From assembly GCA_905178155.1 (NCBI GenBank), contig CAJINV010000001.1, positions 7,609,506 to 7,673,505 of the forward strand: DNA of 64,000 nt, in the 5' to 3' direction. Source of the stretch: Amoebophrya sp. A120. Taxonomy: Eukaryota > Protista > Dinoflagellata. This document shows, piece after piece, positions 3,345 to 12,000 of this stretch (position 1 is its first letter; every line of letters starts with the position of its first letter). The translations under genes were made by a program, and so were the position numbers. The notes below the pieces were generated by a model. It had not been told where the DNA came from. It did not search any database and saw only the letters and a list, made by a program, of their open reading frames with translations.

Positions 3345-4723
3345 ATGGCTGACGGAAACGTGAAACTGAAGTCCAGCCAGGGCGACGTCTTCGTCGTCGA
3401 GCGGGAGGTTGTATCAAATGCAAAAATGTCTGGGTCTGGAAGCTTGTGATGCTCAAAGTGAATGGTAGACGGACTGCAATACGCAGCTATGCATGACAAA
3501 TTTTTTGGCTCTCATGTCTTACGTATTCCGCATGACAAACTGCGTTTTTGCATGACAGATAAGAGGGCCTTTTCGTGCCTATGCAACACAGATTCTCGAG
3601 TCATGCCAGACACGCATGACAAACCTGCATTCTTCCAGACCCAGACATTTTTACACTTGATAGGTTGCGGTTATGTCCAACCTGCTGAAGAACATGATTG
3701 ACGACTGCGCCCCGGATGAGGAAATCCCGCTCCCGAACGTCAAGTCCACGATCTTGCAGAAGGTATCACTGGTTGCGGCTAATGCGTGCTTTTTTTGCAT
3801 GATAGTACAGTATGTAAATTGCATGATGCGCCGCATCGTTGCCAGTGCACACATTTTACTGCAAAGACTACATCGTGAAGCGAAATACATAAAGTAAAAG
3901 TCGAAAATATGCGCTTTTCTATACAGGTGATCGACTACTGCAAGCACCACCGGGACTATGGAGAGAAAAAAGTTTGTCACAGTCACTAACTTGCAGGCTT
4001 TGCATTACAAATTTTCTCAGCATCACAAACTTTCCTTGTATTGCAGAAACACTAGGGAAATACCTAATGAAGTTTGGCTGTGATGCATTTTTACGCATGA
4101 CAAACAATTTAGTATTGCAAAAATGCGCATGAGTGATCGTGACGAACTTTTTTTCTTTGATAGGGACGAGTCTCCGGAGGAGATCCAGAAGCCGTTGAAG
4201 TCGCACATTTTGACGGAGTGCGGCGTGTTATCAATTGCAAAAATGTCTGGGTCTGGGAGATGGCGAGATTTGTCATGCTTGTCTGGCATCACTCTGAACT
4301 CTGTGTTGCATGGCCGTGAAGAGCTCTTCCTCCCTGTCATGCAAAAACGCAGTTTCTCATGCGGAGTACGCAACTCAGAGCCATGGAAAAAACTTGTCAT
4401 GCTTGGCAGCGCATTATAGTCAGTTCACTATTCCCTTTCTTGCATCACAAGTTTCCAGACCCAGACATTTTTGCAGTTGATACGTGTCGGAGTGGGACAA
4501 CAACTTTGTGACGATCGAGCAGGAGGTGCTGTTCGAGCTCATTTTGGCGGCCAACTACATGGACATCAAGTGTCTGCTGGACCTCACCTGCGCCAAGGTC
4601 GCGTCTATGATCAAGGGAAAGACCCCGGAAGAGATTCGTCAGCAGTTCAACATCGCCAACGATTTCACGCCGGAGGAGGAAGCCCAGGTCCGGGAAGAAA
4701 ACAAATGGTGTGAGGACGCGTAA
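3345..4723 (+). CDS. SKP1: S-phase kinase-associated protein 1 (SCF adaptor), 5 exons
   Basis: Exons 3345-3411, 3668-3762, 3927-3956, 4168-4228 and 4488-4723 total 489 nt and read [119 protein letters not shown]. One GT-AG intron (3763-3926) and three TIR elements. Confidence 0.97.
3412..3662. mobile_element. TIR introner/MITE, family A (251 bp), TSD GGTTG
   Basis: TATCAAATGCAAAAATGTCTGGGTCTGGAAG...CTTCCAGACCCAGACATTTTTACACTTGATA. GGTTG at 3407-3411 and 3663-3667. Removal restores SKP1 EVAVMS. Confidence 0.95.
3957..4162. mobile_element. TIR introner/MITE, family E (206 bp), TSD GGGAC
   Basis: TATGGAGAGAAAAAAGTTTGTCAC...GTGACGAACTTTTTTTCTTTGATA (imperfect TIR). GGGAC at 3952-3956 and 4163-4167. 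Removal restores KHHRDESPEE. Confidence 0.9.
4229..4482. mobile_element. TIR introner/MITE, family A, opposite orientation to 3412 (254 bp), TSD CGTGT
   Basis: Family A TIRs. CGTGT at 4224-4228 and 4483-4487. Removal restores [11 protein letters not shown]. Confidence 0.95.
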
Positions 4724-5963
4724 GCAGTATTTCGTCGTCTCGTCGCGGCATCACGACTAGCGGATTTGGATTTAATCAAGAATATTGGACGAGCAAGATG
4801 TTCGTTGTACTACTACCGACGAGGAAAACGTCGCAGGTGATCGTCGATGTTTAGTCCCGCCGTTGTTGTGAAAATTGATGACTAGTGGTGTCAAATTTCG
4901 CAAGCAGGGAGGCACTAGAAAAGCATCTAGATGATCTTCTATCTTGTTTTCAAAAAGAGCTTTATTACTTCACCGAGTTGATTGTACCCACTAGCGATTG
5001 TCAATCTCGTATTTCGAGAGACTACAGCAATTCCATTTTCCCGGATGGTCTTGCCAGAGAACTTCTTTCCACAGCGACCGCGACCCATGATCTCTTGTCC
5101 TACGAGAAGCGCAATTCCCGCCTCTACTCACTTCCCAAAAAACGATCTTCATCAAGCGACCGCACTACGCTACCATGGGAAGCTGCGTTTATCAATGACG
5201 ATATGCTAATCAAGTATCTATAAATTTACGTTGGGTCTCACTCGACAGCACGATGCCAGAGAATGCTTCGACGACATGTTAGCGGGAGTCCGCGTTCTAC
5301 AGCGCTGTTGTGGTGTTCGACATGTTACTGACTAGTACTCGCACGAAGTCGTGATCGTTTCAGTAAAGTTCTGGACTTGATTTCGTTCGTTTATCGCTGT
5401 CGTAGAGAGAAATCGGGAATGCGAGGCATGATACCCCCTTTCGAGACATGTACAAATTGCATAGAGTGTTTAAAACCGAGTGAAACGATAAAGCATATAT
5501 CGGAGTTTCGAACCAGAACTGTCTATCGCGAACATCGTGTTGGAGTTTATCAGAGAGACGGAAAAGTTCGTGACGTACTACTTGCATCTCGCTTCGGAAA
5601 AATGGTACTAGAAATAGATACGAAGCATTCGCTAGTAGGTTCGTTTTGTCCGTGTCGAGTATTGAAGCAGAAGCTCCTTGACCACCACTTGGCGGATTTT
5701 GTGCGAAAAAAATGACGTCCGCGTCTACCCGGAGCGCGACGAGGAGCCATAAGAGCAGCATCAACGCTGCCAGGCAGTTGCTCGCCGACGCAGGTATCTA
5801 AGGACCTTTCCTAATTTTCGGTTGTACACGAGGCAGTGCCTGTGCCTCATAAGCATTGTTTGTGGGGTAGAGGTCCTTTCCTTGGTCGTCTATGATTTTG
5901 ATTCAAATCAGAGGACAACTTCGCTGACAAATCCTCACTTCACAGAAGCAGCATTCAACCCGC

Positions 5964-9004: not shown

Positions 9005-12000
9005 ATGTCGGCCAGTGTTGTTTCGTTTCTCCTCTGGTGCCAGTTTCTCGTCGGGGGCACGCTTGCAGACCAGGATGCCGCCCTCCGAGAGTGGCACGGG
9101 GTGGACAACAACCCGGAGGTGCAGTTTCGCATGGGCTTTGCCCTTTGCAACGCACGGGAACTGGGCATCCTCGCGCCGCTGAAAACTACCACCCCTGTTG
9201 TGATCATACGGTCGGCAGCCGAAGTGGCGGAAATTTCCACCGAGGAATTAATGGGCGGGCATACAACTGATAAAAATGGCTCCGAGGGACAGGGAGTGGC
9301 CGCCAGCGAGGAGAGGAAGGAAGAGCTGCTCTTCGAGAACGACGGAATACAGGCCGACGTGAATGCAAACGGGGCGCTGCAGGTCCTTTCTGGACAACAG
9401 CAGCCAGATACAAGAACCGACGGTATTAAAAATGCTTCAGGACAACAAGAACAAGCTGGCGATGCAAAACTCCCCTCACCGACCACTTCTGCGGTAGATC
9501 CGACACTCTTCTCTCCGGAGTCCGCGGACAGTTGGTATGACCTGCTCAAACGTTACAATCTCAAACGTTACAATAGAGTCTGAGATTTGTCTTGCATGAT
9601 CAACATGACAGACTCGGACAGCATTCCACTTTCTGCAATACAAATTTCGCCAGATTGTAGTGCGGATTGGGACTCCAGAACTTGTCATGCGCAATCCTGT
9701 GGGAGTAGGGTAGATCATGCACTTCTTGCAACACAAATTCCAGATTCTATTGTAACGTTTGAGATTGTAACACCTGAGCAGGTTATAGTTGGTTCCAGAC
9801 TTTTCTGGACCGTCGCATCTCCTTGCGCGACCCCGTGACCGGCGAGGAACGGTGGGACGTGCCCGCGGCGACGCTCCTTTTGGAGCAGGTGGATTCGCTC
9901 ATTGCGGAGGACTATCAAATGTAAAAATGTCTGGGTCTGGAAGAATGCATGTTTGTCATGCTTGTCTGGCATGACTCTTAAATCTGTCATGGACGATACC
10001 CAAGAGCCCTATTTTTCTGTGATGCAGAAACGCAGTTTGTCATGCAGAATAGGCAACACCTAGAAGCTCAGAAACTTGTCATGTTGAGCCAGCACTTGTG
10101 GCCTCATCATGAGACGCCACCCAGCATCACAAGTTTCCAGACCCAGACATTTTTACATTTGATAAGGACGAGGGCGTCGCCAAAGTCATGTACTACGCGC
10201 TGGAAACGTGCCCGGGGGTCTTGTATCAAGTGCAAAAATGTCTGGGTCTGGAAGGATGTAACTTGTGATGCGAGTTTTAGAACACACAAAAATCTCTGAT
10301 GCATAGGCAGCAAAAGCTGCTCGCTTTCTGTCACCAAAATGAGGGATTTGTCATGCGGATTCAGCATTGCGGAAGCTTGTTGAAACCTGTGATGCTAGAG
10401 CTTCCATGCCAGACCTTCTGTGTCATGCAGAAACAGCATGACTCTTCCAGACCCAGACATTTTTACATTTCATGTCTTGTTTGAACTCTTGAACCTCTAC
10501 ATCGTCTTGCACCAGCACGAAGACAGCTACACCGCACGACAAATCGGCCTCGTGGCGCGTTTCTTTCGAAAACGATTCAAGTTTTTCGCGAACATCTACA
10601 AGATGACCACGCACCAGCGGACCTTGCGAATTTTGGCGGACGAGAACAATCGGAGACTTTTACCACTGCGGGTCCCAGAAGCTCTGGCCGGACCAGACGC
10701 CAGTGCGGACGCGAGGCACGACTGGTTTCGAGTAGAAGTTGCGTGTAGGAAAGAAGTGCTACGCAAAACGCTCGAATTGGACGCAAAGAAGTATCATGAC
10801 GGCGTAGTGGTTGATGGCGCATCGACGACTTCAACATCTTCATCAAGCCAAAAATCTTCACCCGGGAGAACAACGGAGAGTTCCGAGCTATCCGCCTGGA
10901 AAGCTTTTGACCTCGACGACATTCCGCTTGCTCTCGTTGCCGACGTTCTCCCGGCTTTGTTGCACCCGTCTTGCGTGTGTCGCGAGGTGAGAAAAAACAA
11001 GTGCAGAGCCGCAATGAACAGCGACGGTTGCGACCAGTTGGGCGAGATTCTCGGGGTGGAGCCTTTCTGCTTTCTAGCGCACCTGTATGCCCATTTCAAG
11101 GAGCAAATGAGGCGGGACGACGAGCTTTTCTACACGGAAGCTTCCTCCTCTACCTCGTCCTACAAGCCTATCCTGAGTAAAAACGTACCCACCCCAGAGT
11201 TGTCATGCAGATTTGCGATGACAGGAAGACTTGTAATGCGCATCTCCATGAGCATGAGAGGCATACCAGTCGTGTTTTGAAATTTGTGATGCTGTGAACA
11301 GGATGAGCAGATGAATCTGTGCTGCGGTTTTCCTTGCTAACATGCACTACACTGCGGAGCGCAACTTGTCATGCGTGACTCACAAAACTCCTAGGTTTGT
11401 GTTGCAAAGCCCCCAACTTGACTCTGGTGTGGGGACGTTTTTACTCAGGATAAAGCCCTTCACCGTGACCCCCGAGGACAAGCGGTTTCTGTTCTTCGGA
11501 TATCAAAGTGAAAAAAGCCCCCACCCCATATCGAAAACGGAAGATGCGCGAATTTGTGATGCTGTATTTGAGTACACAAATCGACTTGTATTGCTAGAAG
11601 GCCAAGAGACGAAGCTGCGCCCTAAATTGCAGGCAATCTGTCATGCTGATTCCCACTTCCAGCTGCCTCCTGTCATCCTGGAGCTGCAAGGCTTTCCCAC
11701 GCTAGACAGCACTACAGTCCGCATCTTTTGCCTTCTAGCATCACAAAGCTGATTTGTGACCACAAATCTGCATCACAGATTTCCGTTTTGATATGGGGAG
11801 GGGGCATTTTTCATTGTAATATCGGAAAGCAATTTTTCCTTTGGCAGGACGACGTTGAGGAGCGTCGGATCGAGAGCATCACTGAGTCACAGAGGATCGC
11901 AGCGCCGACAGAACTACACCCTTTTGTGGAGGAACTTGGCACGACTTCTACGGCAGCAGCCTCTGGCGCGCTAAGTGTCTCAAGAATAAGCAGTGTAACT

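Follow-up and report, generated by a model that had tools for sequence, protein, structure and literature searches.

The introners of Amoebophrya sp. A120 were described by Farhat et al. 2021 (PMC7789003) as being about 240 nt long, with inverted repeats that start with TAT followed by seven variable bases and at least three A, and with direct repeats of 3-5 nt at non-canonical junctions; that study found no transposase in A120. These properties are shared by the elements studied here, whose family lengths (149, 210, 252/262, 279, 307 and 321) also resemble the A120 rows in supplement 8 of Gozashti et al. 2025 (PMC12130899); the co-orientation of the genes likewise fits A120. The text and supplementary text of the 2021 paper, figures S19 and S25 aside, differ from the present account in giving terminal inverted repeats (TIRs) and direct repeats only; a motif in the interior, a lattice or an analysis of selection was not seen there. 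The elements themselves are known, but we found no account of the internal motif or of its lattice. Family 38 of A120, also in PMC12130899, is likewise a TIR DNA element with TA/TA termini and a 5-bp target duplication (TSD) in the same kind of genome, and carries integrase-like homology; compared by description only, it differs in its length of 808-810 bp and its ORFs, and is stated by its authors to be without Ginger homology or Ginger termini.

In the hAT elements Hermes and Ac, short repeats inside the TIRs occur in both orientations, are asymmetric between the ends and are bound by the transposase (10.1101/2022.09.16.508221). The likeness lies in the arrangement, binding here being only predicted, and the site described for Hermes is a 4-bp word, whereas the motif here spans 8-10 bp, occupies the whole interior, is phased and is common to many TIR families. 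IS3EU/GingerRoot elements (PMC10045372, PMC6839031) have an integrase-related transposase and share with the present elements TA..TA termini, TIRs and the lack of a target sequence preference. Compared by ends and TSD only, the elements were not assigned to this group because its TSD is usually 6 bp and theirs is 5 bp; GingerRoot TIRs, moreover, measure 100-150 bp. The TG..CA termini of Ginger1/Ginger2 (PMC6839031) did not match the TAT..ATA ends found here. Nonconventional introns of euglenids, as described in PMC12501133 and PMC11282704, are also non-GT-AG with TIR- and TSD-like ends, but the pair acting in their splicing is a terminal CAG/CTG, whereas here a repeated, strand-indifferent and DNA-phased motif lies in the interior.

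The window, that is, the whole 64-kb stretch of A120 DNA analysed, contained 53 matches to TGTSATGC, compared with a mean of 4.66 in shuffled sequence (largest 11; 0/100 shuffles reached 53). Forty-seven of them lay within 14 TIR elements totalling 3,691 bp (Table 1), corresponding to 12.7 per kb inside the elements and 0.10 per kb outside. Two of the six sites in the remaining 60 kb (60775 and 60810) belonged to a decayed member of another family. None of nine GT-AG introns and neither of two other repeats carried the motif. An earlier note on this DNA had proposed such a motif, in both orientations and rare outside the elements, and had suggested comparing it with background; each of these points held, and all 15 sites that it quoted (15/15) corresponded to the quoted 8-mer or its reverse complement. 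The full motif is wider than the 8-mer, consisting of an A-rich stretch followed by YY-TGT-V-W-TGC, and the 10-letter form YYTGTVWTGC was present in 415 of 416 elements from the window and from metagenome loci.

Table 1. Elements and host genes in the window, with target duplications, motif sites (sign, orientation) and removal from RNA in spliced contigs X1-X3.
Feature	Position	Strand	TSD	Motif sites	Remarks
SKP1 gene	3345..4723	+			3 TIR elements and GT-AG intron 3763-3926; joined exons give an open 162-aa protein; Pfam Skp1 E 1.9e-28
A1 (family A)	3412..3662	- (reverse to A2)	GGTTG	3445+, 3491-, 3530-, 3550-, 3583-, 3614-	removed in X1 and X2: 256 nt, element plus one TSD copy
E1	3957..4162	.	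GGGAC	4002-, 4020-, 4037+, 4079+, 4095-	211 nt removed in X1 and X2
A2	4229..4482	+	CGTGT	4271+, 4302+, 4335+, 4355+, 4395+, 4442-	259 nt removed; no GT-AG reading among those listed
B1	7115..7430	.	TTGAA	7160+, 7191+, 7260-, 7292+/7293-, 7331+, 7380-	321 nt removed in X1 and X2
C1	9536..9787	.	GTTGG	9588+, 9603-, 9635-, 9683+, 9728-	no removal among joints listed
A3	9913..10164	+	AGGAC	9954+, 9985+, 10018+, 10038+, 10077+, 10124-	no removal among joints listed
A4	10224..10474	+	TCTTG	10264+, 10295+, 10349+, 10388+, 10421+	no removal among joints listed
D1	11169..11452	+	AAGCC	one-strand direct pairs 11201/11232, 11285/11318, 11367/11398	no removal among joints listed
B2 (other cluster than B1)	11501..11821	.	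TCGGA	11555+, 11587+, 11639+, 11738-, 11770-	no removal among joints listed
A5	18003..18266	.	4 of 5	six sites	
A6	18324..18585	+	CGCGT	six sites	
A7	23617..23869	+	CTCCT	six sites	in alpha-galactosidase gene (Pfam Melibiase_2); 258 nt removed in X1 and X3
A8	23925..24187	+	CGATG	six sites	same alpha-galactosidase gene as A7; 268 nt removed in X1 and X3
A9	58636..58897	+	CAATC	five sites	
Decayed copy, kin of locus family 3	approx. 60682..60909	.		60775, 60810	114 bp at 90%; no TIR pair found

The elements ended in TAT...ATA, apart from a single mismatched base at one of the two ends of A4, A5 and A8, and after TAT most ends ran N7-AAA, family C and a few locus families deviating at the A run. 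TAT ends were a selection criterion in the wider element collection; 13 window elements showed them without that filter. A 5-bp target duplication was found at all 14 window elements (exact in 13, 4 of 5 in A5), and at 318 of 451 strong end pairs the 5-bp repeat was exact, with 4 of 5 at another 54. The 5-bp length dominated, and no exact 6-bp repeat was among the ten commonest TSD patterns; hAT elements, in contrast, duplicate 8 bp. Many-copy, with TIRs and TSDs and without coding capacity, the elements correspond to non-autonomous TIR DNA transposons (MITEs). Apart from the motif, interiors of the window families were not alignable (z at most 3.0 in 15 pairs); among 78 family pairs 6 aligned beyond it at z above 5 and 15 at z above 3. 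The ends and the TSD length that the families share suggest a single transposon group, which, with the 6/78 pairs, makes the earlier wording of "unrelated TIR families" an overstatement.

The motif is under purifying selection in all 13 families, most tightly on replicating branches. The ratio of core to spacer diversity was 0.16-0.56 (core 2-6 times less variable than base-matched spacers), and 63 of 66 motif sites fell below the spacer median, as computed on majority sequences in alignments that may still anchor on the repeated motifs. On internal branches the core/spacer ratio was 0.17, compared with 0.42 on tips (8 families; second estimate 0.20 and 0.42, respectively), and the core tip rate of 0.028-0.036 lay within the 0.02-0.04 implied by TSD decay. 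The core relaxed less at the tips than the TIR (0.28 and 0.41-0.43, respectively; differences of 0.13 and 0.15, with intervals that barely cleared 0), and with TSD decay it stayed flat while TIR mismatch rose (0.034, 0.010-0.059; spacers flat too; 225/356 candidate copies), which together hint at constraint after insertion. On the shortest tips, which were binned on spacer rate and are biased accordingly, core, TIR and spacer rates were alike (0.018-0.024).

Statistics of spacing and orientation, suggested in the earlier note, brought out a 10.5-bp lattice and nearly equal use of the two strands. A direct pair at 31-33 bp was present in 12 of 13 families (0/5000 nulls), direct spacings were phased (R 0.43 at 10.45 bp, 3/2000 nulls) and remained so without the 30-34 class (2/2000 at 10.5 bp), and convergent spacings were phased at 10.5 bp (R 0.60, 0/2000 nulls). 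When related families were collapsed, support for spacing and phase weakened to 43/5000 and 18/2000, respectively. The module repeated every 79-97 bp, sites filled the entire interior, and the outermost site faced outward at 7 of 26 family ends. Counting phase along entire elements, starting at the TIR end, gave no significant result across families (320-413/2000 nulls); the first inward-facing site clustered at 33-34, 41-45 and 53-56 bp (R 0.79, 5/5000), a pattern picked after the data had been seen. Element length gave its best periodicity at 11.75 bp (R 0.27, without null comparison). A fixed four-site module (+0, -16, +32, -48) received partial support only, four other windows being not significant, and its 15-16 bp convergent spacing was reached in 8/1500 by family and 191/1500 by lineage.

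The lattice is indifferent to the direction of transcription. Insertion strand relative to transcription was 13:14 in family D, in which every strong site lies on one strand, and 66:54 in family A by locus strand (64:38, p 0.013, by one of three strand-calling methods). Overall, the motif lay on the transcript strand 566 times and on the opposite strand 520 times.

Selection, the 10.5-bp lattice, the two orientations and the absence from GT-AG introns make a putative double-stranded DNA protein-binding array the most likely reading of the motif, ahead of pairing in RNA and of a neutral remnant. On balance we favour the view that these internal sites are bound by a single mobilising protein common to the families, which would probably be an integrase-like transposase or a partner of it. 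The published A120 family with TA/TA termini, a 5-bp TSD and integrase-like homology speaks for this. The common site for a trans-acting factor that the earlier note had envisaged is thus upheld as a prediction, from the selection in 13/13 families, the helical phase, the 0/9 GT-AG introns and interiors that are otherwise unalignable. Like known subterminal repeats, the array is repeated, in both orientations and conserved in replicating copies. Several protein subunits would occupy one helix face, seated on direct pairs three turns apart that recur every 8-9 turns. They would thereby bend the interior, whose 110-320 bp are presumed too short for free looping, and bring both ends together to be cut and inserted with a stagger of 5 bp. 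Families may exchange spacers and the inner part of the TIR while the TAT ends and the lattice persist, which would explain how a single enzyme can serve many of them. Once an element is inserted, its motif would mostly decay as neutral DNA, and removal from RNA would then rest on something else. Against this reading stand the sites that fill the interior, the outermost sites that face outward, the non-significant phase of entire elements, the weaker support with related families collapsed, the one uneven strand count in family A and the hint of constraint after insertion. Nor was a transposase found: there was none among the 24 window ORFs by Pfam, none was evident by eye in 10 long TIR-bounded loci, and a TIR search of viral and prokaryote collections returned 0 matches.

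It is unlikely, but the best placed of the alternatives, that a host architectural or chromatin protein wraps the element through the phased array and that the transposase reads the TAT ends only. Elements would then be selected to recruit the protein, wrapping either aiding synapsis or shielding them. Host help in bending has been discussed for Hermes and piggyBac (10.1101/2022.09.16.508221), and wrapped DNA would fit the lattice over the whole interior, the A-tract flanks, the TG/CA steps and the module repeat of 79-97 bp. However, native host targets were not seen here, the density outside the elements being at chance in the window and the GT-AG introns scanned lacking the motif. General chromatin proteins, in addition, seldom have a specific motif of 8-10 bp. 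With background sites no denser than chance would give, a genome-wide host chromatin code is disfavoured.

Removal from RNA bears on a further alternative. Six window elements (A1, E1, A2, B1, A7 and A8) were removed exactly, as element plus one duplication, in spliced contigs; seven others, in stretches that were also covered, had no removal joint among the joints listed. As to excision at the DNA level, no joined form of A7 or A8 was among the joints listed for X6 and X8, contigs that cannot show absence, and the raw-read runs X9 and X10 gave no joints from only 130 and 4 reads. Reverse-transcriptase template switching is unlikely as the sole source of joints, since the three SKP1 elements put the reading out of frame and contain stops in each frame. 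An unlikely possibility is that one element-specific DNA-binding protein, possibly a domesticated integrase-like transposase, wraps the element and serves both its mobility and its exact removal in either orientation. Bound to the array, it would also mark the element on chromatin and have it left out of the transcript, either because a cutting and joining activity is recruited during transcription or because the polymerase skips from one 5-bp repeat to the other. Consistent with this dual use, removal was exact without a splice consensus (a GT-AG reading was possible for 10 of 208 exonic elements) and elements in both orientations were taken out of one SKP1 transcript. Further, TIR stems carried similar numbers of G-U and A-C mismatches (280 and 275, respectively), hence no sign of RNA-stem selection, the core held up slightly better than the TIR both on tips and in copies whose TSDs had decayed, and U1 was reported as undetected in Amoebophrya genomes (Farhat et al. 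2021, PMC7789003). Constraint was, however, far stronger on internal branches, the rates on the shortest tips did not set the core apart, and site numbers were similar in coding-like and noncoding-like insertions (small noncoding samples). The TSD clock is also weak, spacers not rising with TSD decay either.

Action of the motif in RNA, as pairing units or as the site of an RNA-binding protein for non-canonical splicing, is very improbable. Opposite sites did often pair in the predicted folds of the near-symmetric families 7 and 9-12, and tip changes were slightly fewer with TGT..TGC on the transcript (0.030 vs 0.037, p 0.08). Nevertheless, orientations were about equal, one-strand family D included, and direct repeats on a 10.5-bp lattice follow the geometry of B-DNA. 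Motif-motif pairing occurred in 0/8 folds of family A and 1/8 of family D, and the internal pairing units offered by the earlier note were not sustained. Least probable of all is a single ancestral element with the motif as a neutral leftover of old internal duplications, which the shared ends and the 15/78 alignable pairs would suit but which is opposed by the low variability of the core and by spacers within 31-33 bp pairs that are mostly unrelated (above z 3 in 6/178 between-family and 1/12 within-family comparisons).

Farhat et al. (PMC7789003) left open both the mobilisation of Amoebophrya introners and their removal from RNA. If the dual use were true, splice sites in a lineage whose introns are mostly non-canonical would be defined by a DNA-bound protein and not by U1 and an RNA consensus. 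That nearly every family has the motif, and spaces it by a definite rule, suggests a single machinery behind the many families. Motif and rule supply the bait and the mutants with which to identify the protein and to separate a role in mobility from one in splicing, and the motif can be used to detect decayed copies that escape TIR-based searches.

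The elements, defined by a search for inverted ends flanked by direct repeats, number 14 in the window (206-321 bp; families A-E). Their ends start with TAT, with three of the 14 one base off at one end, and the flanking 5-bp target site duplication (TSD) is exact in 13 and matches at 4 of 5 positions in one. In anatomy they match the strain A120 introners that Farhat et al. (PMC7789003) describe (inverted repeat of TAT, seven variable bases and at least three A; short direct repeats), and the elements themselves are already known. Contigs of sequencing runs X1 and X2 (one sample, presumed RNA, with contigs lacking the GT-AG introns) omit elements A1, E1, A2 and B1, and those of X1 and X3 omit A7 and A8, the gap in each case being exactly the element length plus 5. 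Among the joints listed, all from runs of one study, removal was seen for six of the 13 elements covered (all but A9), and no joint skipping A7 or A8 was seen in the DNA-like runs X6 and X8. Once joined, the SKP1 exons form an open reading frame identified as Skp1 by Pfam; this single gene holds A1 and A2, members of one family in opposite orientations. The window is of eukaryotic origin, its long open reading frames (ORFs) lie almost all on one strand (24 versus 2), and 19 of the 24 window ORFs scanned gave no Pfam match.

The earlier note held that TGTSATGC recurs within these elements and is rare elsewhere. Indeed, all 15 quoted sites were confirmed, and the window contains 53 matches on both strands versus 4.66 expected (0/100 shuffles). 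The elements (3,691 bp in total) hold 47 of these and a decayed copy two more; the four left in ~60 kb are at chance level. No site occurred in nine GT-AG introns or in the two other window repeats checked. A single metagenome scan with the family-A terminal inverted repeat (TIR) returned 136 stretches, and mining of 133 loci (824 kb, overlapping) plus the window yielded 424 elements, a sample skewed to family A and to intact ends. After eight elements >500 bp were left out, the remaining 416 formed 32 clusters, 15 with at least two copies; 415 of the 416 carried a site. The matrix built from 13 families is A-rich, then YY-TGT-V-W-TGC. Outside called elements, the metagenome loci contain 228 motif clusters, of which 161 match known families; 28 without a match, often with a weak or absent TIR, could represent either aged copies or further families in which the motif is retained.

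Further features of the window and of metagenome loci (L numbers)
Feature	Location	Coordinates	Observation
733-bp repeat	window	13466-14198	at ORF 3' end; deep in run X6; no motif site; 90% copy in L041
918-bp stretch	window	20170-21087	ends TTAAGG...CCTTTAA; exact 5-bp repeat AGGGT; 858-bp inverted-repeat unit within; no motif site
C1 left end	window	9536-9580	tandem 14-bp repeat, CTCAAACGTTACAA twice, within extended TIR
Close family-A pair	window	9913-10474	55-59 bp exon between
Close family-A pair	window	18003-18585	55-59 bp exon between
Close family-A pair	window	23617-24187	55-59 bp exon between
Similar close family-A pairs	L003, L008, L085		
Split family-A copy	L067	476-2934	~2.2 kb insertion; 415-aa open frame; TSD intact
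Elongated copy	L042	10001-10972	TIR and TSD intact
Elongated copy	L027	3862-4492	TIR and TSD intact
Elongated copy	L038	10001-11031	TIR and TSD intact
Elongated copy	L015	10314-10770	TIR and TSD intact
Alpha-galactosidase ORF	window	22541-25086	Pfam
Amino acid transporter ORF	window	52329-55475	Pfam
Skp1 ORF	window		Pfam

The elongated copies, with longest open frames of 85-151 aa, are possibly nested insertions. In length, the 733-bp repeat comes close to A120 families of 721-730 bp given in PMC12130899 supplement 8, and the TTA start of the 918-bp stretch resembles the A25-type inverted repeat of Farhat et al. (PMC7789003).

A direct pair of sites at 31-33 bp was present in 12 of 13 families (0/5000 nulls, look-elsewhere included) and in seven of seven lineages (43/5000). 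All 70 direct spacings peaked at 10.45 bp with a phase near zero (3/2000 nulls); the 50 left after removal of the 30-34 bp class were still phased (2/2000 at 10.5 bp), and one family per lineage gave 18/2000. Convergent spacings (n=51) peaked at 10.5 bp with an offset of 4.6 (0/2000), and divergent spacings (n=18; best period 8.2) had an offset of 5.9 (1/2000 at 10.5 bp). These two offsets are complementary, and thus both orientations fit one helical lattice; counting against it, phase measured from the TIR end across the whole element was not significant.

The motif is rather probably an internal protein-binding array serving mobilisation: a protein would bind the array, the DNA would bend and the ends would synapse. 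Judging by the 5-bp stagger and the TA ends, the enzyme that moves the elements may be integrase-like. No transposase was found in 24 window ORFs, ten long TIR-bounded rows inspected by eye, or viral and prokaryote collections. The best candidate partner may be A120 family 38, given in PMC12130899 as 808-810 bp with TA/TA termini, a 5-bp TSD and integrase-like homology. That the array is instead bound by a host architectural protein is unlikely.

Relative to the spacers between sites, the rate of change of the motif core in trees of eight families was 0.17-0.20 for internal branches and 0.42 for tips. Such a contrast would be expected if leaving descendants needs intact motifs, and a core tip rate of 0.028-0.036 accords with neutral decay as timed by a TSD clock, in which the two TSD copies mismatch at ~4% of positions. 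A residual signal runs counter to neutrality after insertion: relaxation is weaker in the core than in TIR positions 11-30, and the core is flat in copies with damaged TSDs. Under sparse sampling, tips blend replicating and resting time, so the motif may still have a role after insertion; a dual role, in which the array also acts in RNA removal, is quite doubtful.

Strand was examined in 381 elements with sufficient flank, 303 of them with a locus-level call, all calls being predictions of a codon model with the window as its training set. By locus-level call, orientation was 66:54 in family A and 13:14 in family D, in which all strong sites face one way; motif copies on the transcript strand were 566 versus 520. 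The junction-level call for family A (64:38, p 0.013) was the sole one of 18 tests below 0.05. This near balance argues against the motif being an RNA signal, as does the rarity or absence of motif-motif pairing in families A and D; the earlier suggestion of internal pairing units is not supported. A GT-AG reading was possible in 10 of 208 exonic elements, and TIR mismatches showed no G-U preference (280 versus 275; 334 elements). An RNA signal, strand-specific or not, is very improbable.

With sites set on majority sequences, the core of each of the 13 families was less diverse than its spacers (0.16-0.56 times; matching for base made no difference) and also less diverse than its TIR; a neutral relic is thus highly improbable, and the motif is selected, not leftover. 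Of 78 family pairs, 73 aligned above plain shuffles, only 15 above motif-preserving shuffles and six above the latter at z >5. No alignment beyond the motif was detected among the six window clusters (15 pairs, z -0.7 to 3.0). Neither a lack of enrichment nor full-length alignability with a neutral motif was therefore found. The description of the families as unrelated holds for these interiors and not for the ends, which are shared, so that one transposon group is likely for all.

No description of the motif or lattice was found among the literature matches listed, and 'atgc' had no match in the accessible supplement text of PMC7789003, whose figures may bear on novelty. An internal motif that is shared, under selection and in helical phase seems not to have been described so far; it would be a variant of the subterminal repeats of transposons. 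The motif opens two questions to testing, namely which agent mobilises these introns and which one takes them out.
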